Positions 23,919 through 55,966 of a stretch of 64,000 bases of DNA are shown piece after piece (position 1 is the stretch's first letter; every line of letters starts with the position of its first letter). The notes beneath the pieces were generated by a model, which did not search any database, was not told the DNA's origin, and saw only the letters and a list, made by a program, of their open reading frames with translations. This DNA is from an uncultured Planctomycetia bacterium (GTDB lineage: Bacteria > Omnitrophota > Gorgyraeia > VGKH01 > JBHPFN01): the NCBI GenBank assembly GCA_964406665.1, contig CAYOSQ010000002.1, positions 182,219-246,218 on the forward strand. Reading direction: 5' to 3'. Made by a program: the position numbers and the translations under genes.

Positions 23919-23983
23919 AAAAACCTGGGTCTATAATATCAATAAATTTCTCTTTTGCAAGAGAAAATTCAAAAAATTCATTA

Positions 23984-24895
23984 CTAGAAGGAATAAACCA
24001 AAGAAGACAATATCTTCATGTCCGTTTTTTTCGTTCCAGCTGAGGGCTCAGAGTTGTAATCATTTATCCAACTGATCTGCAAAGAGAGTTTTTCGCTAAT
24101 AGGATTAGTGAACACTGTTTCAGAATGAAGTCTGTACTTGCCGGCATCTGCAAGCGATGGATACAAATAGACATCTTCCGAAATGCGTGAATCTTTAAAC
24201 AGCTTTTTCTCAAGAAAAGCACGCGGAATAAGCACCGGCTCTGTTTCGTCTTTAGTTGAGTCAATATAATTTGTATATTCAGCTCCAATGCCAATTTCTC
24301 CCATAGCTTTGAAATCATCGGTATCAGCCAACCAATACCCCACCCCTGTTGAGGGAATAATCCTATAATTTATATTAGCAAATTTGTCGTGGTTGCTTTC
24401 AATCTTGTAAAAATTATACCACTTCCTTTCCCAAAAACTGTAAGCATAGCGCGTCATACCGTTCCATGTTTGAGCGTCCATTTTTTTATTAGTTGAAGAA
24501 AAAAACGTATCGCCTTTGAGATGAAATTCATCATCATCGGTTTTTCTGTGGACGACCAGCTTGGTAGAAAGTTGACTATTTTCTGTATTGCCACTTGTTT
24601 GATTATAACCAACAGATATATTTTTTTCCCATTGAGGCAATGATTCTGCTGGCTTTGCTTCTTGCGAAATCTCCTCTACTATTTCATTGACAACGATTTT
24701 ATCTACATAGTCTTTATTAATGGTTATTTCTCCAGTCGCTTCACTTTTAATCACAACAATATCTTCTGTTTCGCTGACGATCTCCCCGCTTATTTTATCG
24801 CTGTTTTTAAGATGTATCTGGGCAGCAGAAAGATTACTAGTAAATGCTGTGAGAAGAAAAACCAAAATTAAGCCTAAGTTAACAAGAGTTCTCAC
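23984..24895 (-). CDS. Secreted outer-membrane beta-barrel-like protein (DUF481/YdiY-like).
   Basis: Signal peptide; N-terminal IHLKNSDKISGEIV motif; aromatic C-terminal residue (SF). Confidence 0.5.
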   Translation of the reverse strand: MRTLVNLGLILVFLLTAFTSNLSAAQIHLKNSDKISGEIVSETEDIVVIKSEATGEITINKDYVDKIVVNEIVEEISQEAKPAESLPQWEKNISVGYNQTSGNTENSQLSTKLVVHRKTDDDEFHLKGDTFFSSTNKKMDAQTWNGMTRYAYSFWERKWYNFYKIESNHDKFANINYRIIPSTGVGYWLADTDDFKAMGEIGIGAEYTNYIDSTKDETEPVLIPRAFLEKKLFKDSRISEDVYLYPSLADAGKYRLHSETVFTNPISEKLSLQISWINDYNSEPSAGTKKTDMKILSSLVYSF

Positions 24896-24909
24896 CTAAA
24901 AAAACCTCC

Positions 24910-25680
24910 TTAAATATGAGCTGCTACAATATTTTTTAATTTATCGTGAATTTTTCCGTTTGAGGCAATATAGCCAACTGAAGAATGAGTTAAGGTTTCC
25001 CCTTTTAACCCGGTAATCTTACCTCCCGCTTCTTCAATAATACAGACACTGCCGGCAAAATCCCAGGGTAAATCATGAAACTCAATTGAAGCATCCAAGC
25101 AACCTTCGGCAATATAGCTTAAGATACGAGCAGAAGAACCATACATCCTAATGTTAAAAGCTTGCAAAGCAACATCCCGCAAAGTGGTAGTCATAACATC
25201 TGCTGCCTTGGCAATACTAGAATCAAATGAAATCGAACATCTGCTTAAGTCCTCATTATCGGACACTTTAATCTTTTTTTCATTCTTGAAAGCACCCGCA
25301 CCTTTTTGAGCACAGTACATCTCCTTCTCAACCGGCATATAGATAACACCTGCGATAAACTCTTTATTGCGGATAAGCCCAATGCTCACTCCAAAAATAT
25401 TCATATTACGGATATAGTTATGCGTTCCATCTAAAGGATCTATAATCCAGAGATTCTCCTTATTATTACCTTGAGAGCCGCTTTCTTCGGCTAATATTCC
25501 ATGCTCTGGGAAATCTTCCTTTATCTTTTTAACTATAATACCCTCTGCTTCTTTATCTAAGTTAGTAGCTAAAGACCTGTCCTTCTTTCTTTCAATGTTG
25601 CTGACCTTACCAAAATTTTCTAAAAGAAAATCTCCGGCCTCTCTTGCTGCGGATACGGCAGTATTGATAATCTCACTCAT
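24910..25680 (-). CDS. suhB: Inositol monophosphatase family protein.
   Basis: WIIDPLDGT metal-binding motif. Confidence 0.85.
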   Translation of the reverse strand: MSEIINTAVSAAREAGDFLLENFGKVSNIERKKDRSLATNLDKEAEGIIVKKIKEDFPEHGILAEESGSQGNNKENLWIIDPLDGTHNYIRNMNIFGVSIGLIRNKEFIAGVIYMPVEKEMYCAQKGAGAFKNEKKIKVSDNEDLSRCSISFDSSIAKAADVMTTTLRDVALQAFNIRMYGSSARILSYIAEGCLDASIEFHDLPWDFAGSVCIIEEAGGKITGLKGETLTHSSVGYIASNGKIHDKLKNIVAAHI

Positions 25681-26023
25681 TTCTCTTCCTTTTTTTAGTC
25701 TTTATGCTATTTATAAGTTCTATTTTTCTATCTCGAGAAAATGTTTTTACTTCATATTCTCGAACAAGTGCATCTTTTCTATCTGACCTTCCTTCACTAT
25801 AGCGAAGCTTTACGGGTCTGCGCAAGCTTGTATAATAGGAAGCTTTTCCATCATTGTGCATTTTAAGCCGGCGCTCAATGTTGTTAGTTATTCCTGTATA
25901 AAGAGAGCCGTCTGAACATTCAACAATATAAAGTTGCCAGGATAAATCAGCATTTTTCTTAAGTTTGCCACTTTGCAGCTTATCTTTCATCCTGCTGATC
26001 ATTTTTTTGTATTGCGAATCCAT
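25673..26023 (-). CDS. GIY-YIG nuclease-domain protein (YhbQ/UPF0213-like).
   Basis: WQLYIVECSDGSLYTGITNNIERRLKMHN...REYEVK GIY-YIG core. Confidence 0.8.
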   Translation of the reverse strand: MDSQYKKMISRMKDKLQSGKLKKNADLSWQLYIVECSDGSLYTGITNNIERRLKMHNDGKASYYTSLRRPVKLRYSEGRSDRKDALVREYEVKTFSRDRKIELINSIKTKKRKRNE

Positions 26024-26031
26024 TTATAGTT

Positions 26032-26727
26032 TTAGTTTTCTAAAGAAATAATTGTTTTTGAATGATCTGGTGATGCGGTTGCCAGTTCTTCTTTGCTTAC
26101 GATTTTGGTTCCTTTCGGAGGCTCAAAGAAAAACAGATACTCATTTATGTCTTCTTTAGTCTTAAAAGCTGTACATTCGATTCCCCAGGTAAGGTAATGA
26201 TTATACGGATCGGCATTTAAAAAAGCCTTTTTCTTCACTCGCTTAACATAAAATTCTTCCCTGTGGACAAACAACTCTACGTTATTAAAACCGCCTACTT
26301 CTTTTTCTTTGAAGACATAGCGATGACAAGGGCTATCATTAAAAAATATATCTTCGGGTTCAGGTAACCCCGTAGCTTTCATCTTCCAGAAAAAAAGTTT
26401 CTTGCTTAAAAAAGTTGCAGAAATGTTCCTGCGCACAGCATAAGGTGCATCAAAAAAATCTTCACTGGGAAAATAATACCACAGTGTCTTACCGTTATAG
26501 ATTACCTCATATAAAAGCTTGGATTCTTTAAAGTACTTTACGCGAAACATTTTCCCCTTAACCAGAAGGGTTATTTTCTCATAGGTTGAATCACCTGAGG
26601 GAATCCGAGATCTCTTGGCATATGATGCCTCGAATTGATTATTACCATTTACTTCAAGCGCAACCGGGCTTGGAAGCGAACAGCCATATACCAATAAAAT
26701 GCTTAGAACAAATAATACTCTCTTCAT
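26032..26727 (-). CDS. Hypothetical lipoprotein.
   Basis: Signal peptide with lipobox LVYGC. Confidence 0.5.
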   Translation of the reverse strand: MKRVLFVLSILLVYGCSLPSPVALEVNGNNQFEASYAKRSRIPSGDSTYEKITLLVKGKMFRVKYFKESKLLYEVIYNGKTLWYYFPSEDFFDAPYAVRRNISATFLSKKLFFWKMKATGLPEPEDIFFNDSPCHRYVFKEKEVGGFNNVELFVHREEFYVKRVKKKAFLNADPYNHYLTWGIECTAFKTKEDINEYLFFFEPPKGTKIVSKEELATASPDHSKTIISLEN

Positions 26728-26745
26728 GTCATCACCACAAAATAT

Positions 26746-26907
26746 TTAACGAGTCCTTTTGTTTTTTCTTCTTAAAGCCTTAGCCATTCGCTCAATTGCC
26801 TGTTTCTTAGTGCTACCTTCAGTAAGATGATCACAGCAAATCACGGCATAACCAATACGATTTTTAATCTTAAAGACTTTTACAGCTTTTCCTTCAATCT
26901 TCATCAT
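26746..26907 (-). CDS. Small ORF (53 aa) not in the ORF track; weak resemblance to a HicB-like/UPF0150 N-terminal fold.
   Basis: My translation of the reverse strand gives MMKIEGKAVKVFKIKNRIGYAVICCDHLTEGSTKKQAIERMAKALRRKNKRTR. No hicA partner is adjacent. Confidence 0.3.
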   Translation of the reverse strand: MMKIEGKAVKVFKIKNRIGYAVICCDHLTEGSTKKQAIERMAKALRRKNKRTR

Positions 26908-26925
26908 AACTCCTTTATCAATAAA

Positions 26926-27123
26926 CTATTTAATAGTTTCTTGACGCATAATTGATTTATCAACTTCATAATAATCAGCATTTTGCTGTGTAGGTAATTG
27001 AACAAAATATAATATAAAGAAGAAAAAAAGAATAGCAACAGTCATCAAAGAAACAATCACTACGCAAACTGTGCTTTTCTTCTTCAGGTTACCTATAACA
27101 TCTGCGCGATCTTCTGATTCCAT
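26926..27123 (-). CDS. Small single-pass membrane protein, hypothetical.
   Basis: 65 aa with a central hydrophobic helix. Confidence 0.4.
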   Translation of the reverse strand: MESEDRADVIGNLKKKSTVCVVIVSLMTVAILFFFFILYFVQLPTQQNADYYEVDKSIMRQETIK

Positions 27124-27140
27124 CGTATTTAAAAGATTGC

Positions 27141-27929
27141 CTATCCCTCATTTTTCTTAGTATAATTTGAAGCCTTAAGCATCTGCAGCAACATACCAAT
27201 CATTGGAGAAGAATCTCCCTCTCCTAATTTTTTAACGCCCGCGTCTAAAATTGCTGAGATCTTATCTAGGTTCTTTTCTGTAACGGAAACACTCTCCCTT
27301 GTTTCGATTTCTTTAACTGCTTCAGAAATAAATTTTTTTTTCTGAATTTTTGAAAATTGTTTCCACTCTCTTGCAGTTATGCCATAACCGTTTATTGTTG
27401 CTTTATCCGCTGGAAAGAAAAAAACAATAGAATCTTTTTTTAACTTTTTAAAAAAAGATGAATATTCGTTTTCGAAAGAGCTAAACTCGCTAAAGACCGT
27501 TCCATCCCACATATAAATCTTTGTTCCTACATCTTCAAGCTTGCTGGGTCTTTTATTCATAGTGTCTCTATAGTAAATCTTCCTAGTTTTAACAACAATG
27601 TACATCCTGCTGTCTTCGGGATCCGGTCGCTTAAACTTAACCTCAGAGATAACTTCGGTATTTTCTTTACCCGGAATTCTAAAAGTAGAGTCCATGGTTT
27701 GCGCATGAAAAATCAACTTCCATTCAGGGAGCTCATCCTTAAAAATTCTCATATCTTCTCTATAATGATTATCATCAACAACTGTTCTAGATTCAACTAT
27801 GATCTCATCTAAAGAATCGCCATCAAAATCAAGATAGGTATAATTCTCATACTCAGACCAGGCAAAACAATAAGATGCAATACCTAGCAATAAAAGCAAA
27901 AAAACAATACTTGATAAATGACGGTTCAT
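27141..27929 (-). CDS. Hypothetical secreted protein.
   Basis: N-terminal signal peptide; no recognisable motifs. Confidence 0.5.
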   Translation of the reverse strand: MNRHLSSIVFLLLLLGIASYCFAWSEYENYTYLDFDGDSLDEIIVESRTVVDDNHYREDMRIFKDELPEWKLIFHAQTMDSTFRIPGKENTEVISEVKFKRPDPEDSRMYIVVKTRKIYYRDTMNKRPSKLEDVGTKIYMWDGTVFSEFSSFENEYSSFFKKLKKDSIVFFFPADKATINGYGITAREWKQFSKIQKKKFISEAVKEIETRESVSVTEKNLDKISAILDAGVKKLGEGDSSPMIGMLLQMLKASNYTKKNEG

Positions 27930-28025
27930 AAACTACTCCTTAAACTATGCGTTTTTTTCTCGAGAATGATTTGAAGACTATAAAACTAATAAGAAAAACT
28001 GCAAGTAGCTTTTTCACTTAATCAG

Positions 28026-28352
28026 CTACTTAATTATCAAACCACGGTTAATAAATGGAGCTATCAAAACAAAAACTATATAGGGTGAAAGAATCAACAA
28101 GGAAACCAATACAGTCAAATTAAGAACAAACTTAAGTTTTACGCTCTCTTGCCATTCCTTCAAAATCAAAATCATGGCTATAGCAATAAGTATGTACGCA
28201 TTAGTTAAATCGGCTCCGGGAAACCCAGGAAAAACCTTTTCAAAAAGTATATTGAATGAAACAATCAAAGATGCTAAAAGCGTTAAGAACGAAAGATTGG
28301 CAATCAATATAATAATACTAATGCCAGGAATATTATTTTTGTTTTCAAACAT
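28026..28352 (-). CDS. Hypothetical polytopic membrane protein.
   Basis: 108 aa with three hydrophobic segments. Confidence 0.45.
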   Translation of the reverse strand: MFENKNNIPGISIIILIANLSFLTLLASLIVSFNILFEKVFPGFPGADLTNAYILIAIAMILILKEWQESVKLKFVLNLTVLVSLLILSPYIVFVLIAPFINRGLIIK

Positions 28353-28446
28353 AAAATCCTCCTTTTTGCTTATTATTTTTACCTGATTATCTTAACTCTA
28401 ATTAGCGATTTTTGCAAGTTTTAAACAGTAAAATATAACAACTAAA

Positions 28447-28476
28447 TAATTATTGCGTTTTTTAATCTATGATATA
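28447..28476 (+). promoter_or_regulatory. Putative sigma70-type promoter with extended -10 (ttattg-N17-TGaTATAAT), upstream of the + strand gene at 28499.
   Basis: Read directly: TG-extended TATAAT about 25 nt upstream of the AAGGAGAA RBS. Coordinates are good to about 1-2 nt. Confidence 0.45.
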
Positions 28477-28498
28477 ATAAACTCAAAAGGAGAATAGA

Positions 28499-29008
28499 AT
28501 GGACTATATATCAGAATTAATGGTAGCGGATTGGATTATAATAATTCTAAGTCTAACATTAGTAAACTGCCTCCTTTACATATTAAGACTTAACAAAAAA
28601 TTAAAAACTGAGATACACAAACGAACAGTCCCAGAGCTAAATCTTCAGCTAGACCTAGATAAAATCGGTCTTTTTATTATCAACACTGGAGAAATCACTG
28701 CCAAAGACATCAACATTGTGGATTTATCTGCGACGATAAGTGATTACGGATACGATACTGATTTTAGATTTGAATTTGAAACAGTTGATGAACTAAAGCC
28801 CAAGGAAGAAAAAAAGCTTTACCCTCGTGTTTTCCAATCACAAGATGAATGCCCTCCTCATTTAGCTGAAAAAATTACAATGCATCTTTACAATACTCCC
28901 TGTAATGTTGAGACGTTATTTTCTAACACCGAGAGAATTAAATTCAAGACCTTATTTCGCAGAGAAGCTAAAGAATTCATCCAGAAAAAAACTGAACCCA
29001 TTCAATAA
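28499..29008 (+). CDS. Hypothetical membrane-anchored protein.
   Basis: N-terminal TM helix; good RBS (aaaggaga). Confidence 0.55.
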   Translation: MDYISELMVADWIIIILSLTLVNCLLYILRLNKKLKTEIHKRTVPELNLQLDLDKIGLFIINTGEITAKDINIVDLSATISDYGYDTDFRFEFETVDELKPKEEKKLYPRVFQSQDECPPHLAEKITMHLYNTPCNVETLFSNTERIKFKTLFRREAKEFIQKKTEPIQ

Positions 29009-36453: not shown

Positions 36454-36628
36454 TAAATTCGTACTCTCGCTAAAACCTAGTCTATTCTGCCCCGACCGCA
36501 AGCGGTCTGGATTGTTTACGCGAAGCGTAACCCTTTAGGGCTTCGTCCAAACGACTTATCTCCAGTGATTTACCTCACTGTCCATAAGTCGTGGCCACGC
36601 TAAAATTACAGGCGCCTAGAAAATTGGC

Positions 36629-36786
36629 GACGACATAAGTTATGGGGTGCTAAGCACGACGTAACTTATAGGTCGGAAGCCATCCCGCAAAGCGGGACAG
36701 ACGACATAAGTTATTGAGTGCTAAGCACGACGCAACTTATAGGTCGGAAGCCATCCCGCAAAGCGGGACAGACGATATAAGTTATG
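36629..36786 (+). repeat. Tandem direct repeat, unit A, 71 bp, about 2.2 copies.
   Basis: gacgacataagttat[g/t]g[g/a]gtgctaagcacgacg[t/c]aacttataggtcggaagccatcccgcaaagcgggaca is repeated head-to-tail at 36629 and 36700, with a partial third copy at 36771. Confidence 0.85.
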
Positions 36787-36960
36787 GACAGCACCGAAGG
36801 TGCAGGAAGATAAGTGATTATGTGCGCAGCCGCACCGACGCTTTTATCGGTGCAAAACAAGCACATCACTTAACGACAGCACCGAAGGTGCAGGAAGATA
36901 AGCGATTATGTGCGCAGTCGCACCGACGCTTTTATCGGTGCAAAACAAGCACAACATTAG
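36787..36960 (+). repeat. Tandem direct repeat, unit B, 88 bp, 2 copies.
   Basis: gacagcaccgaaggtgcaggaagataag[t/c]gattatgtgcgcag[c/t]cgcaccgacgcttttatcggtgcaaaacaagcaca... starts at 36787 and 36875. Each copy folds into a multi-stem structure. Confidence 0.85.
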
Positions 36961-36975
36961 CATCTCTACTAAAAA

Positions 36976-37020
36976 GGGCAGTCCTATAAATCATATTGGA
37001 CTGCCCCTAAAGCTTTTCTT
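36976..37020 (+). terminator. Rho-independent terminator closing the pilin / repeat-RNA transcript.
   Basis: gggcagtcc-N13-ggactgccc is a 9-bp GC stem followed by ctaaagcttttctt. Confidence 0.75.
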
Positions 37021-37579: not shown

Positions 37580-37800
37580 CCTTTTCTCCTTTCAACAGAA
37601 AAGACAACCCTGCTTTTAGAGTTGTCCGGAATTGATTAATTTGGTTTTAGATTTGTCAATAGGTACTGTCCTATCATAGTAAAGACTATTGTAGTATCTT
37701 TTATTGTTTTTTGCAAGCTGATATCCAATTAAATAGAGGATATCTTACCAGCTTATCATGCAGCTGGAGTTCACATCTAATCAACGTAATTATTCCTAAA

Positions 37801-37864: not shown

Positions 37865-37918
37865 TATATTATTATCAAAATATTATTAATTAACTATGTA
37901 CCTCCAGATCTTACGGAG

Positions 37919-38883: not shown

Positions 38884-38906
38884 AACAATCTCCTAACTTT
38901 CGATTA

Positions 38907-41636: not shown

Positions 41637-43304
41637 ATGATGTCTGATTTCATATCGCGCCTAAATCTTTTTGCAGTATCTTCAATTCTCATTTTTTTCT
41701 CTAACCTAACTATATCTATACTTGCATTTCTGAAAGGACAGGACAAGCGATTAAGCATTGTCTTTGGTCTACTTTGTCTTTGCGTTACTACTTGGGGAAT
41801 CGGAGGATATATTTCCTCTACAACAACATCCAAAGAGATTGCTTATCTAGGATGGCAAATTGCGAACATATGTTCAGTATTCGTATCACCAATATATTTT
41901 CATCTTGTCTGCATATACACTAAAACAGCTAGAAAACATCTGCTTTTGTTGATGTATTTTTGTGGATTCGTATTTATCTCTTTTAATTTCTTTGCTAAAG
42001 AAATGTTTTTAGGGGACTTGCAGTTACTTTTTAATCAATTTTATTATATTAGCTGGTCTGTAGACAAGAATTTGATTTACTTAATTTTTTATATTTGCTT
42101 CTATTGGATTTTTTTATTATATTCTTTTTATATATTGGTGAGAAATTTTTTAAATTCAAGTAAAAAAAAGCGCAATGAGATAAAATATTTTTTAATAGGA
42201 ACAAGCATTGGATGGCTAGGAGCTCATGGTGATTTTTTAAGCGTGTTTAAACCAACTTTTTATCCGTACTTAAATTTTTTAATAGCTATTTATCCTATTA
42301 TTTTGACTTACGCAATCTTTAAACACCAGCTCATGGATATAAAAATCGTTCTTCGTAAGGGACTTGTATATTCTATTTTAATTGCTTTTATAACTATAAT
42401 CTATTTGCTAGTTGTGCTTTTGTTTGAAAAGCTACTTCAGGGAATTGTAGGCTATCAATCAATATTTACTAGCATACTGACTGCTCTAATAATTGCACTT
42501 ATTTTTATTCCCCTAAAGAACAAAATACAAAACTTCGTTGATATGGTATTTTTCCAGGGAACCTTTACTCAAATCGCCAAGGAAAAAGAACTAATAAGCG
42601 AGGAGCTTAATCGCTCTGAACGGCTAAAATCAGTAGCTACTTTTGCATCTGGCATGGCCCATGAAATTAAAAATCCCTTAACTGCGATAAAGACATTCAC
42701 TGAGTACTTACCAGAGAAAAAGAACGACCCTGAATTTCTAGACAAATTTTCTAAGATTGTTTCAGGAGAAGTAGGCAGAATTGATTCTTTGGTTCATCAA
42801 CTATTAGACTTTGCTAAACCCTCTCTCCCCAAGCTCATTCCTGTTAACATCCATACTCTTCTTGAAGAAACCCTGAGCTTCCTTAATAATCAACTAATTA
42901 AACATAAAATTAAAGTAAAAAAAGAGCTAAGAGCAACGCAATTTACTATACAAGCTGATTTAAATCAGCTAAAGCAAGCATTCTTAAATATATTTCTGAA
43001 TGCGATTGACGCAATGCCTAATGGTGGCTCTTTTGATATCAAGACTACAGCTATTAATTCACAAACAGCAGACAAACAATTCATTCAAATTATAATAAGC
43101 GATACTGGATGTGGTATCAGAAAAAAGGATTTACCGCATATTTTTGAACCGTTTTATACAGCTAAAGATGGCGGGGCAGGCTTAGGACTTTCGATTACAC
43201 ACGAAATTATAAAAAATCACGACGGGAAAATACTTGTTGAGAGTAACACTAACAAAGGAACAACCTTTATAATTGAATTACCTTTAAAAAGTAATAACTA
43301 CTAA
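41637..43304 (+). CDS. Sensor histidine kinase with an N-terminal multi-TM sensor domain (paralog 1).
   Basis: Six to seven TM helices with WGIGGYISSTTTSKEIAYLGWQIANI, then HisKA (SHEIKNPLTAIKTF) and HATPase_c (DTGCGI...GLGLSI). Confidence 0.85.
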   Translation: MMSDFISRLNLFAVSSILIFFSNLTISILAFLKGQDKRLSIVFGLLCLCVTTWGIGGYISSTTTSKEIAYLGWQIANICSVFVSPIYFHLVCIYTKTARKHLLLLMYFCGFVFISFNFFAKEMFLGDLQLLFNQFYYISWSVDKNLIYLIFYICFYWIFLLYSFYILVRNFLNSSKKKRNEIKYFLIGTSIGWLGAHGDFLSVFKPTFYPYLNFLIAIYPIILTYAIFKHQLMDIKIVLRKGLVYSILIAFITIIYLLVVLLFEKLLQGIVGYQSIFTSILTALIIALIFIPLKNKIQNFVDMVFFQGTFTQIAKEKELISEELNRSERLKSVATFASGMAHEIKNPLTAIKTFTEYLPEKKNDPEFLDKFSKIVSGEVGRIDSLVHQLLDFAKPSLPKLIPVNIHTLLEETLSFLNNQLIKHKIKVKKELRATQFTIQADLNQLKQAFLNIFLNAIDAMPNGGSFDIKTTAINSQTADKQFIQIIISDTGCGIRKKDLPHIFEPFYTAKDGGAGLGLSITHEIIKNHDGKILVESNTNKGTTFIIELPLKSNNY

Positions 43305-44865: not shown

Positions 44866-44899
44866 TTTAATCCCCTTTCTAGGTTATAGCGTTTAGGGT

Positions 44900-45268
44900 T
44901 TAGCGCTTAGTCTCAAGTTTAGAAATAAGAACGTTTAACATTTTTAAAATCTCAAGAAGAAAATTATCAGACTTAGAATACTCTAAATTTTTGGTATCTT
45001 CAAGTTTTTTTGAAATACAAATTTGCGTCTCCAGCTCGGAAGCTGAACTGTAGGCAATAGTCAAGAAATGAATATATTCTTTTACGTGTTTCCTGCAATA
45101 TCCCTCGGCAATATTAGAAGGAATAGCAACAGCAGCTCTGCGCATTTGAGAAGTTAATCCGTATATTTCACTTTGAGGGAAAGATTTTGTTAATTTATAG
45201 ATTTCTAAAACCAAATCCATAGCCTTTTGCCACACAATTAAGTCTTTATATGATTTTAACTTAGCCAT
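44900..45268 (-). CDS. Four-helix-bundle protein (23S rRNA intervening-sequence protein / Avd-like family).
   Basis: SYKDLIVWQKAMDLVLEIYKLTKSFPQSEIYGLTSQMRRAAVAIPSNIAEG is the family signature. Confidence 0.8.
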   Translation of the reverse strand: MAKLKSYKDLIVWQKAMDLVLEIYKLTKSFPQSEIYGLTSQMRRAAVAIPSNIAEGYCRKHVKEYIHFLTIAYSSASELETQICISKKLEDTKNLEYSKSDNFLLEILKMLNVLISKLETKR

Positions 45269-45305: not shown

Positions 45306-47492
45306 CTATTTCTGCGCGGGTAATTTCATAGTAAACATTGTTCCACTGCCATACTCAGAAGTAACACCTATTCTTCCCTTATGGTTATTTACTATAATTT
45401 TTTGTATTACGTACAACCCTAAACCAGTACCTTTTTTACTCGATGCTTTTGTGGTAAAAAATGGTGTAAATAATCTTACCTGCTCTGCATCTTTTACGCC
45501 CATTCCATTATCAATGAACCTAATCTCGATAGAGGAGTCTGTTGCTTCAGCCTGGATTGTAACATTACCCCTGTAACCTTCTTCCTTTAACTCACTTCTT
45601 CTCTGCATAATAGCATCGTAGGCATTATCTATCAAGTTAAAGAAAACTTCCTGAAGCTGAACAAAGTTTCCTTTTATTTTAGGGATATCTTGGGAATAAT
45701 CCCTAATTAAATCTATCTGGCTAAGTTTAACTTTATATTGTGCCATTTCAAGTGATGCATCAACAAGCTCATTTAGATCTATTGCCTTAAAGCCGGATTC
45801 TCCAGCTCGAGAATATTTAAGCAAACCATGAACAACCTCTCCGCCCTGCTTTACATTTTCTTTAACTCTCTCAAGTGCATGGCTAATCTGAGTGATGGCT
45901 TCGCGCATCTCTTCAGGAGATGAATTATCGTTTAACAGTTTTATCGTGTCCAGTGTATCTGCAGCAATCATTCCAAGTGCATGAAAACGGTTATTTATCT
46001 GATGTGACAGGCCATCTGCCATAGTACCGATCGTGGTCATCTTTTCTGCCTGGAAAAGCTGAGTTTGTGTTTCCTTAATATCTTCATAAAACTGTGCATT
46101 TTCAATCGCTAGAGCAGCTTGATTAGTTAAAACAGAAAATACTGACAAATCATCCGGTGAATAAATATGGCCAGAAATCTTCTCTCCTAAAGTCAGAAAA
46201 CCAATAAGCTCATCTTCAACCAAGCTAGGAACAACAACAGCAGCCCCTAAAGATTCCATTTGCTTTTGAATAGCAAGAAGCCTGGAATCATTAAAATCAG
46301 ATGCCTCTTGTTTTATCTCTTCATAAACTAGCGGCACTCTTTTCTTCCTCAAGGCCTTTATCAAAGCAGTGTTTTCTTCAACCGAAACAGGCGGAGGAGA
46401 TTTCTTCTTATCTCTGTGGGCCTGAAGTGTAAAAATATGATTATTGGGCTCAAGTAGATATATTGAACTATGTTTAATGCGTACTGTACGGGTTACAATA
46501 TGAACAATCAGATTAAGAAGCTTTTTTAGGTCTCGGATTCTCGTCATTCCGCTAGAAGCCTGCCTAAGAGTTTTTTGATACCTTCTCTGCTCTCTTAACA
46601 ATGCGTCTTCTGCTCTTCTTTGAATGTAAAGGTATATAAATGGACCTGATGTCGCAAGAAAAGTTGATAATGCTAAAGGTCCTATCCACCAATTATCACC
46701 CAACAATAGTGTTAAGTATGGACGAAGTCTATAGGCGACAACAAAAGGTGTTCCTAGAATCAAGGAATAAACACTAATGAATATACCTGTGCGAGTAATG
46801 GCAACAGTTACATCCATCAGGCGATAGCGAAAGATGGCATAACCAATAATCAGAGGGTAAATAGCTATTAAGAAATTACTCAGGGGGTAAACATTAATTC
46901 CAAAAACTAATAAAAACATACCATGAGGGCCAACCCATCCTATCAAAGATGCTAAAATAATATATTTCGCCCTATTGCGAGCAAGTCCACTGCTTTTTTT
47001 ATAAAATTTCACCAACAAAAAGAAGGCGTATGAAATGAGAAAATGGTAAAAAACTATATAGTATGATAAATAAAGTAAGCTTTTTTTCTTGCTCCATGCC
47101 ATCCAATAGAATTGGTTAAATACTAACTCGAGCTCACCAATAAAGAATTCCTTATACAAAAAGGCAAACCCTATATAGATAAATCCAAGCATATAGGAGA
47201 AAAAAATGAGAGGTTTTTTAGTAACCTTAGTGAACTTGCAGACAAAATGTAAGAATAATGGTGGAGTAAGAATCATTCCAATATGAGCAATCTGCCATCC
47301 TCTGTAAGCTACTTCTTTTGACGTAGTTACTCCTAAAATTAAACTTCCTATTCCAAAAATCGCCGCTCCTAAACATACTAGAGCATAGCTAATAGAAACA
47401 ACTCTTTCTTGACCTTTTAAATAAATAACAACCCCTACAAATAGGGTAAAAACAACAACTAATATACATGACAAACTAAAAACACTTATCAT
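45306..47492 (-). CDS. Sensor histidine kinase with N-terminal multi-TM sensor, GAF domain, HisKA and HATPase (paralog 2).
   Basis: Same N-terminal 7TM-like module (FGIGSLILGVTTSKEVAYRGWQIAHI), a central GAF region, and a HATPase C-terminus (DNGMGV...GTGLGL). Confidence 0.85.
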   Translation of the reverse strand: MISVFSLSCILVVVFTLFVGVVIYLKGQERVVSISYALVCLGAAIFGIGSLILGVTTSKEVAYRGWQIAHIGMILTPPLFLHFVCKFTKVTKKPLIFFSYMLGFIYIGFAFLYKEFFIGELELVFNQFYWMAWSKKKSLLYLSYYIVFYHFLISYAFFLLVKFYKKSSGLARNRAKYIILASLIGWVGPHGMFLLVFGINVYPLSNFLIAIYPLIIGYAIFRYRLMDVTVAITRTGIFISVYSLILGTPFVVAYRLRPYLTLLLGDNWWIGPLALSTFLATSGPFIYLYIQRRAEDALLREQRRYQKTLRQASSGMTRIRDLKKLLNLIVHIVTRTVRIKHSSIYLLEPNNHIFTLQAHRDKKKSPPPVSVEENTALIKALRKKRVPLVYEEIKQEASDFNDSRLLAIQKQMESLGAAVVVPSLVEDELIGFLTLGEKISGHIYSPDDLSVFSVLTNQAALAIENAQFYEDIKETQTQLFQAEKMTTIGTMADGLSHQINNRFHALGMIAADTLDTIKLLNDNSSPEEMREAITQISHALERVKENVKQGGEVVHGLLKYSRAGESGFKAIDLNELVDASLEMAQYKVKLSQIDLIRDYSQDIPKIKGNFVQLQEVFFNLIDNAYDAIMQRRSELKEEGYRGNVTIQAEATDSSIEIRFIDNGMGVKDAEQVRLFTPFFTTKASSKKGTGLGLYVIQKIIVNNHKGRIGVTSEYGSGTMFTMKLPAQK

Positions 47493-47494: not shown

Positions 47495-48925
47495 TTACCT
47501 CATAATTCTCAGTATTTTAAAAGCAACCCTTTTGCCGCTGAGAGCGGCATTAGAAATCCCGCCTTGACCAAAGGCATATGTAAGCCAATGACCGCACAGA
47601 AATAAACCATCAATTTCGGTTTTGTTAGTAACTAATTTAAAGTTTGCTTTGTTTGCCTGGCTAGGAAATGCTGCCCATCCATAAGCAGAGCCATTGAAGT
47701 TTAGGGTGTGTCTAAAAAGATCATAAGGAGTAGCAATTATTTTTAAAGAAATATGTCTAGATAAATTCTCGATTATCTCTTCTGCTCTTTTTATTAAATT
47801 GTGGCTAATTTCATGTTTGTTGTTCTCCCAAAAACTTTCATTCTTAAACGGTGCCATCATCAGGATATGCATGCTTTTTAAGGTAGATCTAGAAACATTG
47901 AATTCTGACAAAGAGCACAAAAGATTATTGCCGGAAAAATTAATGCTCTCTGGATTATTATCCTGCAAATACACGTTATTCATATCAGAAGTTGGATACC
48001 ACAAAGCAGTACATTTTTTCAAACCTAATTCACTAAAAGTATTTTTTAATCCGAGATAAACAAGAAATATCGAAGGCGTAGAAACAAGACTATTAAGTTT
48101 GTTGATATAATTTTTTGCTAAATAATCCTCGCCTATCAAGCTAAAAAAAGTTTGCCGTAAATCACAATTGGAAACAATAAATTTTGACTCCACAAGTTGC
48201 TCATCTATCCTAATCCCCTTAACCTTGTTGTTTGAAATCTTTATTTTGTTAACCTTGCTGGAAAACAAAATGCTGCCCCCAAATTCTTTTAGTTTTTTAG
48301 CCAAGGCCTGGGGAAAAGAAATCATACCTTCTTTTGGATAATAACCACCATTAATTATAAAATCTCGATAGAGAACAACGGCAACCAAAGCAGAAATTGC
48401 CTTCGAAGAAACACCTAAATTACCCAACGGTATGTTTAGGAGATATTTTATTTTCTTATCAGCGAAATATTCATTTAAAAATTCCAAAAAAGTCTTATGT
48501 CTTAACTCATAATAAAGTTGACTATTGCGAGTATTTGTAATAAACATAAAGAAATTTTCAATATTATTTGCTTCCTTGGGAAACGAGCTCTGTAATCCAT
48601 GAATTGTTTTCTTAAGATCATTCCAAAAACAAATCTCATAGTCATGCGTAACTATAATATCTGAAGGATCGATTCTCGTAAATTCAATATCCAAGCTTAA
48701 TTCTTCTACTACATTTCTTAATCTTCCTCCTTTATACATTTCTCCCAAAGAATGTGGCCCTGCATCAAACCTATAGCCATCCCTTTCAAAAGAACTACAG
48801 TATCCTCCAGGCTTATCATTTTTCTCTACTATTAAAACTTTTTTTCCGGCTTTAGCAAGATAGCAACCACAAACAAGCCCACCAATTCCTGCTCCAATTA
48901 TTACAACATCATATTTCTCGCTCAT
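47495..48925 (-). CDS. FAD/NAD(P)-dependent oxidoreductase of the phytoene-desaturase/amine-oxidase (CrtI-like) family.
   Basis: YDVVIIGAGIGGLVCGCYLAKAGKKVLIVEKNDKPGG dinucleotide-binding fold; 476 aa. Confidence 0.75.
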   Translation of the reverse strand: MSEKYDVVIIGAGIGGLVCGCYLAKAGKKVLIVEKNDKPGGYCSSFERDGYRFDAGPHSLGEMYKGGRLRNVVEELSLDIEFTRIDPSDIIVTHDYEICFWNDLKKTIHGLQSSFPKEANNIENFFMFITNTRNSQLYYELRHKTFLEFLNEYFADKKIKYLLNIPLGNLGVSSKAISALVAVVLYRDFIINGGYYPKEGMISFPQALAKKLKEFGGSILFSSKVNKIKISNNKVKGIRIDEQLVESKFIVSNCDLRQTFFSLIGEDYLAKNYINKLNSLVSTPSIFLVYLGLKNTFSELGLKKCTALWYPTSDMNNVYLQDNNPESINFSGNNLLCSLSEFNVSRSTLKSMHILMMAPFKNESFWENNKHEISHNLIKRAEEIIENLSRHISLKIIATPYDLFRHTLNFNGSAYGWAAFPSQANKANFKLVTNKTEIDGLFLCGHWLTYAFGQGGISNAALSGKRVAFKILRIMR

Positions 48926-49521
48926 CTTATATGTCTCACTGTCTCTGATAAAGGTTTCCTTATAGAACGCTTGCCTTCTTCAATGCGATAACCAAAGGTC
49001 AAGACTGCAATTAGCTCATCAGTAGTATCAAGAAGTTCGTTTATTTCTTTTTGACAAAATAATGGAGTATCCAACCAACAAGAACCAACGCCAAGTGCTT
49101 CTGCAGCAAGTATCATGTTTTGAATTGCAGCAGAAATTGCAGAAAGTTGAGCAGTCTTAATTATTTTAGAAAATTTAGAATAAATTACTTTAAATTTATG
49201 TTTTATTTCTTCCAAATCTCTAGAATTATAAACTAGAATTATAATGGGAGCACCTTTAATTATATTTGATGCTGAATGCAACATGATATTAACACCAGTG
49301 GTTGATTTTTTAGATTCTTTTAGGATTAAATTAGCAATTCTTGCAATTGAATTTTTATTCGAAATAACAATAAATCTCCAAGGTTGAATTTGCAGAAAAC
49401 TGGGGACAGAAGGCCCCCAAGTTCCTGCTTCGACAATCTTATCTATTATTTCACTTGAAATTGGTTTTTCTTTATATCTTCTTATCGTTTTTCTTTGTTT
49501 TATTAATTCTAGAACATCCAT
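48922..49521 (-). CDS. Nitroreductase-family flavoprotein.
   Basis: LELIKQRKTIRRY...QPWRFIVI nitroreductase motifs. Confidence 0.8.
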   Translation of the reverse strand: MDVLELIKQRKTIRRYKEKPISSEIIDKIVEAGTWGPSVPSFLQIQPWRFIVISNKNSIARIANLILKESKKSTTGVNIMLHSASNIIKGAPIIILVYNSRDLEEIKHKFKVIYSKFSKIIKTAQLSAISAAIQNMILAAEALGVGSCWLDTPLFCQKEINELLDTTDELIAVLTFGYRIEEGKRSIRKPLSETVRHIR

Positions 49522-49539: not shown

Positions 49540-50658
49540 TTAATAGACAGGTCTAGTAGCTTTCCTTGGATTATCTTTTCTAATAAACCCAGATTTGATG
49601 CAATATTCAAAAGCTCGACTAAGATTATTTTTATCGATCGCTGGATATCGAAATCTGTATACTTTAAGCATATCAGCCGTCCTCTTGGCAACAAAATTTG
49701 CCTTATAGTTAAAATACGGAATATGAGGCTCACAGAAGGCACTTTGGATTGCTGTGAGCTCTAAGAAATCAAAATCTTCTTTTGGGATAAACTCAGGCAT
49801 CTTGAAACTAAAATAATCGCTGGCAAGTTTCATAAAAAAACTTAAATTAGTATTTTTTTGGCTGATAATATGAAAAACTCGGCTTCCCTTCTCTTCTGAA
49901 AGTACAATTATAGCTTTTGCAACAGTATCAATATTAATCAAGTTCTGTCCGCAATCTAAATTCGCCGGATATTTATCAAAAATCTCATTAGTAAAATAGC
50001 GTAAAGGTTGATAGACTAATCTGAAACTATTTGTCTTTCCTGTCTTTGAATCACCCATAATCATGCTCGGACGAAAAACTGAGACATTTAGACCTTTTTC
50101 CAGATATTCTTTAACCAACAATTCTGCTTCAAATTTACTCTGTTCATACGTATTGTTAAACCCTTGACCCACATCCAACATAGTCTCATCAAAATCAATT
50201 ACCTTAGTCCCAACTACATACATTGTGCTTATATGATTAACTTTCTTTAACCGTCCTTTCTTTTGACATTCAGCTGCAAAATCTAAAACATTGCGCGTAC
50301 CTTCAACATTTATTTTACGTATCTTTTCAATAGGAACTTTTAATTCAGCTAATGCAGCACTGTGTATAATAATATCAGATTCGAAAAGAAGAAGCTCTTT
50401 GTCTTTCGGGTTAATACCTAAACCAGGTAAAGCAATATCTCCTTCGATTACTTTTAGATTAGAAGCAATGAAATCAGAATCCCACTGTTCATCATATACA
50501 AACCTTAAAGCCTCATCAACTCTCTGATTGGCAGTTTTTCCATCCTTCTGTCGCGCTAGAGCAAAAATTTTGTATCCTTTTTCAAACAATTCTTTAACCA
50601 AAAAACTGCCCAAAAATCCTGTTGCGCCAGTTATAAATACATTTTTCTTAGCTTTCAT
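49540..50658 (-). CDS. SDR-family NAD(P)-dependent reductase of the thioester-reductase / fatty-acyl reductase (NAD_binding_4) type.
   Basis: VFITGATGFLGSFLVKEL Rossmann motif and the Y..SK catalytic pair (NTYEQSKFEAE). Length 372 aa, typical of TE-reductase domains. Confidence 0.65.
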   Translation of the reverse strand: MKAKKNVFITGATGFLGSFLVKELFEKGYKIFALARQKDGKTANQRVDEALRFVYDEQWDSDFIASNLKVIEGDIALPGLGINPKDKELLLFESDIIIHSAALAELKVPIEKIRKINVEGTRNVLDFAAECQKKGRLKKVNHISTMYVVGTKVIDFDETMLDVGQGFNNTYEQSKFEAELLVKEYLEKGLNVSVFRPSMIMGDSKTGKTNSFRLVYQPLRYFTNEIFDKYPANLDCGQNLINIDTVAKAIIVLSEEKGSRVFHIISQKNTNLSFFMKLASDYFSFKMPEFIPKEDFDFLELTAIQSAFCEPHIPYFNYKANFVAKRTADMLKVYRFRYPAIDKNNLSRAFEYCIKSGFIRKDNPRKATRPVY

Positions 50659-52267: not shown

Positions 52268-52268
52268 T

Positions 52269-53964: not shown

Positions 53965-55203
53965 TTAATCATATTTTCTCAATACCAAACATGCATTATT
54001 TCCCCCAAACGCGCTTGAATTATTCATTGCAACATTTACATTTTTTTTCCTTGCCTTATTTGGAACACAATCTATATCACAGTCAGAATCCGGTGTTTCA
54101 TAATTAATTGTAGGTGGGATTATCCCTTTCTTTATTGTAAGACAGCAGACAATTGCTTCAATCGCTGAAGCTGCTCCCATGGTATGACCCAACATTGATT
54201 TAATTGAACTAATGGGAATATCTTTGTAGTTCCCGCCGAAAGCTTTTTTTATTGCTGCGCATTCTGCCTTATCATTCTGAATTGTTCCTGTACCGTGAGC
54301 ACAAATATAATCAACTTCTTCAGGTATAGCCTCAGACTGGGTTAGCGCATTTTTAAAACATTTTGTTATGCCAAATGTAGTTGGCGCTGTCATGTGGTAG
54401 GCATCACAAGATAAGCCACAACCTAAAACCTCAGCATAAATTTCAGCTTTTCTTTCTAAGGCGCTGTCTAATGACTCTAAAATAACAATTCCTGAACCTT
54501 CCCCTGCTAACATTCCCTGCCTATTCTTATCAAAAGGTTGACATTTTTCTGGCGCCATAGCAAAAATTCTGCTGAAACCAGCCATATTAATTCGTGAAAA
54601 AGCATCTGCACCTCCTGCAATTACCATATCAACCTCGTTGACTTTGATTAAATCACTAGCAAAAGAAATGGAATGATTACCTGCTGAACACGCGTTAGGA
54701 AAAAGATAATTACACCCTTCAGATTTTAAATCAAAAGAGATATTTGAAGAGATAGCATTTGAAGGATATTTTGTAATTAATTCTGAATCGATGCCGTTTT
54801 CCCCTTTTTGAAGCCAAAGCTGATCAATTAACTCCATTGTTTGAGCTTCCCCCATCGTTGTTCCTAAACACACACCAACTCTCTCCTTATCAACGCCAAC
54901 AATATCAATCTTAGCATCTTCAAGGGCTAATTTTGATGCAGCTATAGCTAGTTGAGAGGCACGCCCCAAAACCTTTAATTTTCTCCTATCAATAAATTTT
55001 TCAGGAGAGAAATTTTTAATCTCCCCGCCGTAATGACGATCATATTGAGAGGTATCGAAAGATTCTATCTTGCTTATGCCAGACTTACCATTAATGCAAT
55101 TCTTCCAGAATTCCTGCCAGCCAATTCCTATAGAGGAAACAACGCCCAACCCTGTTATAACAACGCGCCTGTTTTTGTTCATTTTATTTAACATTATTGT
55201 CAA
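53965..55203 (-). CDS. Beta-ketoacyl-ACP synthase (KAS I/II family); a second copy, distinct from fabF.
   Basis: RRVVITGLGVVSSIGIG, active-site Cys (NACSAG) and His (CAHGTGT) motifs. Confidence 0.8.
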   Translation of the reverse strand: MTIMLNKMNKNRRVVITGLGVVSSIGIGWQEFWKNCINGKSGISKIESFDTSQYDRHYGGEIKNFSPEKFIDRRKLKVLGRASQLAIAASKLALEDAKIDIVGVDKERVGVCLGTTMGEAQTMELIDQLWLQKGENGIDSELITKYPSNAISSNISFDLKSEGCNYLFPNACSAGNHSISFASDLIKVNEVDMVIAGGADAFSRINMAGFSRIFAMAPEKCQPFDKNRQGMLAGEGSGIVILESLDSALERKAEIYAEVLGCGLSCDAYHMTAPTTFGITKCFKNALTQSEAIPEEVDYICAHGTGTIQNDKAECAAIKKAFGGNYKDIPISSIKSMLGHTMGAASAIEAIVCCLTIKKGIIPPTINYETPDSDCDIDCVPNKARKKNVNVAMNNSSAFGGNNACLVLRKYD

Positions 55204-55208
55204 CAGTC

Positions 55209-55220
55209 AACTGTCGACAG
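55209..55220. promoter_or_regulatory. Perfect 12-bp palindrome ACTGTCGACAGT in the 27-bp gap immediately 5' of the ketosynthase start codon.
   Basis: Read directly. It is flanked by the related GTCAACAG half-repeat. Confidence 0.35.
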
Positions 55221-55230
55221 TCCACGGTTA

Positions 55231-55593
55231 TCATTTTCTCAAATAGTTCCTAAGCTTTTGTAACATTTTAATAATTATTTCAGCTTCTGAATATAAAGAT
55301 TTAAAATCTTGTTGATTAATAAGTTCTCTTCGTTTACCTAAATATAAACAAGAAACAACTTCAATAGCTGATCTAATTGCGTAACCGATGAATTGCTTAA
55401 ATTCAGCATTGCTTTGACCAGTTGAACCTTCGGCAATGTTCAATGCTATTGAATCAGCAGCTCTTTTTATCTGACTTGATAAAATATATAGCTCTTCTTT
55501 TGGAAATGTCTTTGTCAAACTATTGATACGAGCACTAAATTCAATAGCTTTCTGCCATACTTCTAACTTTTCAAATTTAAAGCCCATATTCAC
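55231..55593 (-). CDS. Four-helix-bundle protein (23S rRNA IVS protein / Avd-like family), second copy.
   Basis: KFEKLEVWQKAIEFSARINSLTKTFPKEELYILSSQIKRAADSIALNIAEG. Confidence 0.8.
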   Translation of the reverse strand: MNMGFKFEKLEVWQKAIEFSARINSLTKTFPKEELYILSSQIKRAADSIALNIAEGSTGQSNAEFKQFIGYAIRSAIEVVSCLYLGKRRELINQQDFKSLYSEAEIIIKMLQKLRNYLRK

Positions 55594-55621
55594 CTATCGA
55601 CCATGGACAATAGACCATGGA

Positions 55622-55846
55622 CTAACCCTTTCTCCGCTCTTGTCTTTTAGAGTTAAACTGCACCTTCTCAACAATCCATTTATCAATCAACTTCTTATGA
55701 AAACGCCAATCATATCCGATTTTAAAACCAGGGATCTTCCCTACCCGCACAAGCTTATACACTGTAGCAGGATGAATCTGCAAATACTCTGCGAGTTCTT
55801 TTATATCCATTATGTCTTTACTAGTGTTTTTTTCAGTCATTTTCAA
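55622..55846 (-). CDS. Small helix-turn-helix DNA-binding protein (excisionase/MerR-like HTH family).
   Basis: MDIKELAEYLQIHPATVYKLVRVGKIPGFKIGYDWRF matches the excisionase-family HTH pattern. Confidence 0.7.
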   Translation of the reverse strand: MKMTEKNTSKDIMDIKELAEYLQIHPATVYKLVRVGKIPGFKIGYDWRFHKKLIDKWIVEKVQFNSKRQERRKG

Positions 55847-55966
55847 CCTATGCTAAAGTGAGCCTAAATGAGTCATATTAAGCTTAACTATGTATTATTA
55901 ATATAAAATAACCAGGCTATTTTGTCAAGATTTTTTTTAATTAATTGGTTTTTTTAGGAATTTGTT

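Follow-up and report, generated by a model that had tools for sequence, protein, structure and literature searches.

Separation of fabD and fabG, by 32 kb in an uncultured Omnitrophota bacterium, and the split fab cluster of its relatives

In the canonical fab cluster, as found in Escherichia coli and Bacillus, plsX, fabH, fabD, fabG, acpP and fabF stand together on one strand downstream of yceD and rpmF. The E. coli cluster also has internal promoters, and independent transcription of the two halves is not unusual in itself. In other phyla the fab genes can be split, for example in Acidobacteriaceae, where fabD stands alone. Here, the fab genes of an uncultured marine bacterium of the Omnitrophota were analysed in a stretch of 64,000 nucleotides, called the window below (assembly GCA_964406665.1, contig CAYOSQ010000002.1, positions 182,219–246,218), in which fabD and fabG lie 32 kb apart. 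The window has a G+C content of approximately 36%, and carries nearly all of its genes on the minus strand. Its counterpart among marine metagenome contigs is one of 69 kb (JGI 3300009008, Ga0115649_1001655). The named relatives nearest to its FabD and FabG belong to metagenome-assembled genomes (MAGs) of Candidatus Omnitrophota, with 63–69% identity in FabD and up to 82% in FabG.

Genes were called using NCBIfam cut-offs (equivalog/subfamily) and Pfam domains, and all six fab genes scored above the NCBIfam cut-offs. As in the canonical cluster, they occur in single copy, on one strand (minus) and in the canonical order, with yceD and rpmF upstream and a hairpin after acpP. The window differs from that cluster in the 32 kb between fabD and fabG, in separate conserved promoters predicted for the two halves, and in a GIY-YIG gene between rpmF and plsX, because of which the upstream half is not strictly canonical. 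fabD and fabG are not adjacent, and the co-transcription layout of the canonical operon was not found among the fab genes of the window. The lack of fabG after fabD is shared with the split clusters of other phyla; here, in contrast to those, at least three genomes keep the two halves linked and co-oriented, with a specific conserved module at the breakpoint. No description of such a fab arrangement in Omnitrophota was found in the papers searched.

Gene order around fabD and fabG in the window and in related genomes

A preliminary description of the window had reported the six fab genes as split by about 32 kb, on the same strand and in canonical order. This was confirmed, with one correction to the start of fabG, which is almost certainly at 23903 and not at 23918, because the homologues are 246 amino acids (aa) long and the ATG at 23918, only 15 nt past the -10 box, shares bases with the Shine-Dalgarno GGAG. 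With the start at 23903, the gap between fabD and fabG is 32,063 bp. It contains approximately 45 open reading frames (ORFs) of at least 60 aa, among them three plus-strand gene blocks (28499–29008, 35795–36453, and 41637–43304).

On the fabD side, six related loci were compared, namely L083 (GCA_042571725.1; FabD 69% identical), L084 (GCA_042567325.1; 66%), L085 (JGI Ga0171657; 63%), L172 (56%), L171 (55%), and L002 (Omnitrophica WOR_2; 47%). In these, fabD was followed by a gene for a small HTH_17 protein in 6/6 and by fabG in 0/6. Five of the six shared the order fabD-HTH_17-KS2, where KS2 is a FabF-like ketosynthase (KS), followed by a seven-transmembrane (7TM)-GAF sensor coupled to HD-GYP; KS2 was usually followed by a 7TM kinase, a reductase and/or a CrtI-like enzyme before the sensor. 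The remaining locus, L002, kept the HTH_17 gene and a homologue of the 7TM-GAF kinase, with a FadL gene in between. Identity to the window was 56–79% for HTH_17 and 64–66% for KS2, beside 47–69% for FabD, and HTH_17 was similar to or above FabD in every comparison. These identities therefore fit vertical co-inheritance of the module with its flanks. The conserved stretch beside fabD, from HTH_17 to HD-GYP, covers approximately 12.6 kb and is kept in relatives down to 55% FabD identity; on the fabG side about 2 kb is conserved, and only the middle of the gap varies.

The fabG-side set comprised the loci with FabG at least 70% identical and with upstream sequence (L087, L088, L090, L092–L095). 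No fabD was present upstream of fabG in any of them within the 7–10 kb covered (5.2 kb in L090). The order GIY-YIG-IMPase-DUF481 upstream of fabG was also found in L090, DUF481 stood directly upstream of fabG in L087, and in L092 fabG followed smc...dnaG-rpoD. Both halves could be found on one contig in GCA_042567325.1 and in JGI Ga0171657_1000729, co-oriented and with their order unchanged, 16,183 and 22,084 bp apart; one of these two carries DUF481 directly before fabG as in the window, and the other a 2400-aa RHS toxin in the gap. The outer flanks are syntenic as well: recG-rsmD-coaD-yceD-rpmF lies upstream in all relatives, leuC-leuD-leuB follows fabF in the window as in all relatives, and the downstream flank among relatives reads leuCDB-asd-truA-rplM-rpsI-argCJB. 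Locus L105, with a response-regulator/HD-GYP gene directly upstream of fabG, was considered as a compact form of the gap and rejected as a coincidence in a high-GC organism of another lineage.

The uncoupling of fabD and fabG is very likely old, because relatives on both sides of the gap share it, and none of the sampled relatives has a contiguous fabD-fabG pair. UBP18 (L043) and most of the other phyla in the sample do have such a pair, and the contiguous order rpmF-plsX-fabH-fabD-fabG-acpP-fabF is probably the ancestral arrangement. The statement that the six genes are contiguous in most bacteria was too strong, as fabD was not adjacent in 13 of 62 diverse informative fabG loci with upstream sequence, and fabG did not follow in 43 of 56 informative fabD loci, the latter being a biased sample of mostly Acidobacteriaceae. 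The peptide-pattern scan of a genome collection with FabD returned mostly these distant organisms and was used as background only; the metagenome scan with FabG returned only 5 close relatives. An insertion into the operon, as proposed before, held in so far as DNA did accumulate between fabD and fabG, because the halves keep strand and order and are linked in two relatives (16.2 and 22.1 kb), but a recent date for it was not supported. It is very likely that the split is old and lineage-wide, a product of ordinary gene-order evolution, with a conserved, predicted promoter for each half and with DNA between them that is in good part native.

Contigs of the same species from other samples, retrieved by exact protein look-ups, covered both junctions. 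The fabD-HTH_17-IVP-KS2 junction was covered by 10 contigs (FabD look-up), the DUF481-fabG junction by 6 (FabG look-up), and the HD-GYP gene region by 5, of which 3 ran through the plus-strand kinase and 2 of those 3 into the C-terminal tip of the RHS gene. All were collinear with the window at 99.9–100% identity, and no strain-level empty site or other arrangement was present among the contigs found by the FabD, FabG, and HD-GYP look-ups. The central 26.6–40.8 kb was covered by long contigs only. Several same-species contigs stop inside the RHS tip, which hints at strain variation there.

Table 1. Features of the window, listed from the upstream to the downstream half of the fab cluster
Feature	Position	Strand	Basis and remarks
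yceD	59410..59871	-	Pfam YceD; first gene of the conserved upstream half
rpmF (L32)	59185..59382	-	JGI gene call, Pfam Ribosomal_L32p; identical contig L073 (7518-7715) mapped to the window
GIY-YIG gene between rpmF and plsX	58856..59188	-	Pfam GIY-YIG; 4-nt overlaps at both ends
plsX	57870..58859	-	TIGR00182, 355 bits (cut-off 243)
fabH	56893..57873	-	TIGR00747, 439 bits
fabD	55967..56899	-	TIGR00128, 342 bits; final gene of the upstream half
Promoter of the HTH_17/KS module	55900..55928	-	TTGACA-17-TATATT; sigma-70-type, 11/12 consensus match, predicted
HTH_17 small DNA-binding protein	55622..55846	-	Pfam HTH_17, TIGR01764 domain model; first module gene
23S_rRNA_IVP small gene (four-helix bundle)	55231..55593	-	Pfam PF05635
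KS2, FabF paralogue	53965..55203	-	TIGR03150, 438 bits (cut-off 493.75); NF005589, 420 bits (cut-off 387)
Two tandem 7TM histidine kinases	52269-53906 and 50648-52267	-	Pfam HisKA_7TM, HisKA, HATPase_c
Thioester-reductase-type short-chain dehydrogenase/reductase (SDR; NAD_binding_4)	49540..50658	-	Pfam PF07993, E 4e-58; TIGR01746, 173 bits, below cut-off
Nitroreductase-family protein	48922..49521	-	Pfam Nitroreductase
CrtI/phytoene-desaturase-family FAD oxidoreductase	47495..48925	-	Pfam Amino_oxidase; NCBIfam crtI_fam, 129 bits, below cut-off; PDB 4rep, 4dgk
7TM-GAF histidine kinase	45306..47492	-	Pfam HisKA_7TM, GAF, HATPase_c
Second 23S_rRNA_IVP small gene	44900..45268	-	Pfam PF05635
Response regulator	44509-44865	-	Pfam Response_reg; 63-78% identical in L083-L085
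HD-GYP phosphodiesterase	43322-44503	-	Pfam HD_5/HD; 61-81% identical in L083-L085; end of the conserved module
Fourth 7TM histidine kinase	41637..43304	+	Pfam; opposes read-through from fabD
Orphan RHS C-terminal tip (core motif and toxin domain)	40486..41631	-	TIGR03696 Rhs_assc_core, 55 bits (cut-off 32.5), residues 27-75 only
Candidate immunity gene after the RHS tip (120 aa)	40082-40444		Putative immunity role
RAYT (REP-associated tyrosine transposase)	39463..39975	-	NF047646, 81.9 bits (cut-off 80); Pfam Y1_Tnp
Four small lipoprotein-like genes (DUF3568, two unknowns, BamE-like)	37205..39323	-	Pfam; lipobox-like N-termini in the translations
GC-rich non-coding hairpin array, ~540 nt	36455..36990		Short hairpins, two tandem duplications
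Minor-pilin segment	29065..36453		Pfam N_methyl, PilX_N, MORN_2; also small secreted proteins
Pilin within this segment	36019-36453	+
MORN-repeat membrane protein	33919-35409		Pfam MORN_2
Minor-pilin trio	31105-31449 / 30572-31102 / 29065-30567		Last is a 500-aa PilX-like protein
Four genes without Pfam match	26032..29008		Lipoprotein-like/membrane proteins, function unknown
GIY-YIG gene	25673-26023	-	Pfam
IMPase-family phosphatase	24910-25680	-	Pfam
DUF481 outer-membrane protein	23984-24895	-	Pfam; ends 80 bp before fabG
Promoter of fabG-acpP-fabF	23933..23960	-	TTGCAA-16-TG-n-TATTAT; sigma-70-type, predicted
fabG (246 aa)	23163..23903	-	TIGR01830, 343 bits; as ORF 23163-23918
acpP	22881..23120	-	NCBIfam acyl carrier protein
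Hairpin and T-run after acpP	22819-22844		Terminator-like, strong; 9 pairs, 7 G-C
fabF (housekeeping KAS II)	21560..22801	-	TIGR03150, 640 bits (cut-off 494)

Predicted promoters and the module beside fabD

Across the eight relatives that were aligned (A1), the invariant columns in the short spacer upstream of fabG were the -35 and extended -10 elements of the predicted promoter, and this promoter was kept despite unrelated upstream genes (DUF481, a 387-aa ORF, a 214-aa ORF, and rpoD). At the other edge of the gap, both hexamers of the predicted promoter of the HTH_17/KS module were conserved in four genomes, the window, L083, L084, and L085 (alignment A2). The leader that follows this promoter (55847–55900) holds 2–3 tandem repeats of 9–10 nt, TTAGGCTCA / TTTGRCTCA / TTTAACAC, conserved in the same four genomes, and these repeats are a candidate operator or leader element of the module. 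The earlier suggestion that fabG is driven either by a promoter inside the insert or by read-through thus stands in its first part, with a conserved, predicted promoter of its own upstream of fabG; read-through from fabD to fabG is implausible because the three plus-strand blocks and a structured non-coding array intervene. Three transcription units may be proposed from this layout, namely yceD/rpmF...fabD, HTH_17...HD-GYP, and fabG-acpP(-fabF-leu...).

Within the module, the two tandem 7TM kinases are paralogues with a 300-nt internal direct repeat of 77% identity, and the plus-strand 7TM kinase outside it is a further paralogue, sharing inverted repeats of 157–214 nt with the region of 50.9–51.3 kb (73–77% identity). 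The relatives have only one such kinase here. Judged by these repeats, the 7TM kinases at 50648–53906 and 41637–43304 are recent paralogues. The thioester-reductase-type SDR was present in L084, L085, L171, and L172, and the CrtI-like gene in L083, L084, L171, and L172; the nitroreductase was found within the module of the window species only and not in that of the relatives. The IVP gene at 55231–55593 occupied the same site in L083, L084, and L172 and was missing in L085 and L171.

The 7TM-GAF histidine kinase was 61–67% identical in L083–L085 and 43% in L002. In L171 (15173–17218) and L172 (14271–16313), a single 680-aa 7TM-GAF-HD-GYP fusion replaces it. The window clade has the elements of this fusion as separate genes for the 7TM-GAF kinase, response regulator, and HD-GYP protein (43322–47492), a case of domain fission or fusion with the signalling path kept. 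The occurrence of two sensor architectures suggests a conserved link from a membrane signal to cyclic di-GMP (c-di-GMP).

KS2 was 42% identical to the window's own FabF and 64–66% identical in the five relatives, and its Cys-His-His triad was intact, with C172/H303/H340 invariant. Its best PDB match was 9s5h_B (473 bits, 52% identity), and ordinary FabFs reached at most 340 bits. The entry 9s5h holds two different KS chains. Judging from its molecule name and heterodimer composition, it is probably the anammox amxFabF2/amxFabFmut heterodimer, with amxFabF2 as chain B; that heterodimer has been described in a preprint whose text does not name the PDB code (bioRxiv 10.64898/2026.05.19.726425). 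Anammox Cluster I, putatively for ladderane lipids, comprises amxACP, amxFabZ, amxFabF2, amxFabFmut, a phytoene-dehydrogenase homologue, and a B12 radical S-adenosylmethionine (SAM) enzyme (bioRxiv 10.64898/2026.05.19.726425). The module resembles it in KS2, nearest to 9s5h_B (probably amxFabF2), and in the CrtI-family oxidoreductase; the gap of the window differs in having no dedicated acyl carrier protein (ACP), FabZ, radical-SAM gene or triad-dead KS partner. Because the ACP, FabZ, radical-SAM enzyme, and dead KS are missing, the Omnitrophota module is not a member of Cluster I. L083 carries a second, divergent KS in its module (14618–15928); it was considered as a dead partner of the chain-length-factor type and rejected, as its Cys-His-His triad is intact.

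Composition and contents of the intervening DNA

The hallmarks of an inserted island were searched for across the region. No tRNA or tmRNA was detected in the window by the tRNA scan, and the Rfam scan of the whole window found nothing. Among the gap ORFs, no integrase, recombinase or DDE transposase was detected with Pfam and NCBIfam, the sole transposase-like gene being the RAYT in mid-gap. The search for direct and inverted repeats over 21–58 kb returned none that pairs the two junctions; only repeats between kinase paralogues and local tandem repeats were found. The G+C content showed no step (0.33–0.39 in the gap against 0.35–0.40). Leave-one-out tetranucleotide correlation with the flanks was 0.83 +/- 0.03 for flank windows and 0.76–0.82 for the module, and most of the gap lay within or just below the flank range. 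A minimum of 0.67–0.71, 4–5 standard deviations low, occurred only at ~34–42 kb, where the hairpin array, lipoproteins, RAYT, and RHS tip lie. The composition of the gap thus gave a mixed answer, near-native for the most part with one dip, and recent flux looks limited to ~34–42 kb (RHS tip, RAYT, and hairpin repeats).

The contents listed earlier for the gap were confirmed, as pilin-like proteins, a MORN protein, DUF3568/BamE-like lipoproteins, a RAYT, an RHS fragment, four 7TM kinases with enzymes, and HTH_17. That everything between the halves is accessory did not hold, since ~12.6 kb by fabD is conserved, IMPase/DUF481 recur near fabG, and the pilins are Omnitrophota-wide. Nor does the HTH_17 gene mark the edge of an island, as it had been read from its excisionase-family match: it follows fabD in all six relatives behind a conserved promoter, no integrase was present, and neither a cognate integrase nor a mobile element accompanied it as expected of an Xis, the match to TIGR01764 being to the DNA-binding domain only. 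Genomic islands with an excisionase of the HTH_17 family (Xis) resemble the window in a small HTH_17 protein at one edge and in toxin fragments, a transposase-like gene, and selfish small genes. The window differs from them in the lack of an integrase, att repeats, a tRNA target, and presence/absence polymorphism, and in that its HTH_17 is a conserved chromosomal gene.

The minor-pilin set shows N_methyl and PilX_N domains and belongs to a type IV pilus family found throughout the Omnitrophota; in the window, the segment is detached from pilus assembly genes. Homologues of the 500-aa PilX-like protein number in the hundreds among Omnitrophota (48–58% identity), and in GCA_030688425.1 the same trio order stands inside a complete pilB-pilC-...-pilMNO-secretin operon. 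Because the trio homologues are Omnitrophota-wide and lie inside a pilus operon in that genome, the segment can be regarded as a native pilus segment relocated into the gap. Of the four genes without a Pfam match, 26032–26727 had a sole weak match (28%), in L090.

The RHS ORF at 40486–41631 retains the core domain and lacks the N-terminal YD-repeat shell, and is an orphan tip rather than a complete toxin. As in RHS loci with orphan C-terminal tips, it starts at the core motif and has a C-terminal domain of its own, and a small ORF comes after it, in the usual tip-plus-immunity layout; it differs in that the window has no full-length RHS gene near it. The equivalent gap position of a relative (L088, 1–7004) holds a complete RHS/YD-repeat toxin of 2400 aa that includes a PT-HINT domain. 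The hairpin array holds two tandem duplications (71 nt x 2.3; 88 nt x 1.9), and its folding is much stronger than that of shuffled controls, whichever strand is taken (z -7.5 and -6.8). It belongs to no Rfam family, and its units recur neither in the rest of the window nor in the loci retrieved; GcvB, the sole Rfam match for 36.4–37.0 kb (22 bits, E 0.016), was rejected as chance. The array could be a structured RNA, or it could be REP/BIME-like and tied to the RAYT, from which it is separated by 2.5 kb.

In each of these Omnitrophota loci, small GIY-YIG and 23S_rRNA_IVP (four-helix-bundle) genes occur at differing sites, in the manner of selfish insertions within operons. The GIY-YIG nuclease-family gene between rpmF and plsX was missing at that site in L083, L085, and L171 and present at the same site in L172 (4609–4989); in L084, a GIY-YIG gene (3859–4113) sits between yceD and rpmF.

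Alternative explanations and significance

It is hardly conceivable that the separation is an assembly chimera of two unrelated regions. The window comes from a metagenome contig, and shorter contigs of the same species break within the gap near 26.3–26.6 kb and 40.8 kb; however, both junctions and the stretch from HD-GYP to the RHS tip were recovered at 99.9–100% identity in independent assemblies of different samples, and relatives from other studies carry the linked, split layout on single contigs. It is very improbable that mobile or accessory DNA, as a single island or as several (~32 kb in all), was recently inserted into an intact essential operon, with HTH_17 as the excisionase. The TIGR01764 match, the RAYT, RHS fragment, and GIY-YIG/IVP selfish genes, the variation of gap size between relatives, and the composition dip at 34–42 kb would agree with it. 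Against these stand the split in every relative sampled down to 47% FabD identity, with the HTH_17/KS module kept down to 55–56%, the lack of an integrase, att-like repeat or tRNA, and the native pilin genes. HTH_17 is moreover about as well conserved as FabD or better and stands at the head of a conserved module behind a conserved promoter, and the empty site, with fabD next to fabG, was found in no relative and no same-species contig, while the size and content of the middle vary. The split shared by the relatives and the largely native composition, with the dip only at ~34–42 kb, are what an old rearrangement would show, and a recent insertion is already largely refuted for the block as a whole.

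It is also possible, though rather doubtful, that the gap is held by function, the fabD-adjacent module and perhaps IMPase/DUF481 forming a lipid or envelope 'supra-cluster' with the fab genes. Taken jointly, and with the same reserve, KS2, the reductase, and the CrtI-like enzymes would then draw malonyl-ACP/acyl-ACP into a specialised lipid. Equally tentative examples of products are a fatty aldehyde or alcohol, an ether-lipid precursor, or a desaturated chain, with the 7TM-GAF sensors linking the membrane state to c-di-GMP via HD-GYP. The adjacency of KS2/HTH_17 to fabD over deep divergence, the intact triad of KS2 and its nearness to 9s5h_B (probably amxFabF2), whose cluster also has a phytoene-dehydrogenase homologue, and the sensor path kept in two architectures, fused to HD-GYP in L171/L172 and via kinase and response regulator in the window clade, are consistent with such a role. 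So are the FadL gene after fabD/HTH_17 in L002 and the ElbD-like reductase homologues reported for 93/267 Black Sea Omnitrophota MAGs (PMC11868695). On the other hand, this argument is one of guilt by association; neither the reductase nor the CrtI-like gene nor the nitroreductase is constant between relatives, the module has no dedicated ACP, dehydratase or radical-SAM gene, and the variable middle (pilins, RHS) shows no obvious lipid link. A specialised lipid function of the module is therefore kept as plausible and putative, at the unlikely end of the scale.

Under the favoured explanation, an old split by ordinary gene-order evolution, the ancestral fab cluster of the lineage would have been uncoupled between fabD and fabG long ago. 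The first occupant of the gap would have been the HTH_17 gene, the FabF-like KS and, in most relatives, the thioester reductase and CrtI-like oxidoreductase, then the 7TM-GAF sensor leading to HD-GYP. By now this block would be fixed beside fabD, inherited vertically and equipped with a promoter of its own, and fabG-acpP-fabF(-leuCDB...) would have become a separate transcription unit under the conserved sigma-70-type promoter in the ~80-bp spacer. The space between module and fabG would then have drifted, giving gaps of 16, 22, and 32 kb in three genomes and a fabG after dnaG-rpoD in another lineage. In the window species, it may have taken up the relocated native minor-pilin segment, lipoprotein genes, and an extra kinase paralogue, and also a small flux patch with the RHS tip, RAYT, hairpin repeats, and GIY-YIG and IVP selfish genes.

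Several points weigh against this explanation. The sample comprises ~9–10 distinct genomes, is uneven, and was picked by similarity; in the closest relative, GCA_042571725.1, the two halves lie on separate contigs, which limits the view of the middle 17 kb. Both promoters rest on consensus match and conservation, and the composition dip with the RHS/RAYT content at 34–42 kb is compatible with recent acquisition of that part. Three metagenome loci (L097, L099, and L102) carry a contiguous rsmD-coaD-...-yceD-plsX-fabD-fabG-acpP-fabF, in which fabH is missing from its place after plsX and before fabD. Their synteny upstream of plsX is Omnitrophota-like, and if they belong to the Omnitrophota, the split would be younger than the phylum.

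The locus is best regarded as a lineage-specific variant in the gene order of a well-known cluster, stable and inherited, and not as an essential operon caught mid-disruption; in other phyla, too, fab clusters are often split. In annotation, finding an 'excisionase-family' HTH at a synteny break should not be taken as evidence of an island. The conserved promoters predicted upstream of fabG and HTH_17 offer concrete predictions for the transcription signals of Omnitrophota. The KS/reductase/CrtI-like module and the unit from 7TM sensor to HD-GYP are candidates for a specialised lipid pathway in an uncultured phylum. A speculative extension is that many Omnitrophota carry a lipid-tailoring and membrane-sensing unit at the fabD/fabG breakpoint (amxFabF2-like KS, thioester reductase, and CrtI-like desaturase behind a small HTH_17 regulator, connected to 7TM-GAF sensors that would act on c-di-GMP via HD-GYP). 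If true, this would be an undescribed pathway for a specialised membrane lipid, such as a fatty alcohol/ether-lipid precursor or an unusual unsaturated chain, with a condensing enzyme related by descent to the anammox 'ladderane' cluster, although that cluster has been described as unique to anammox bacteria.

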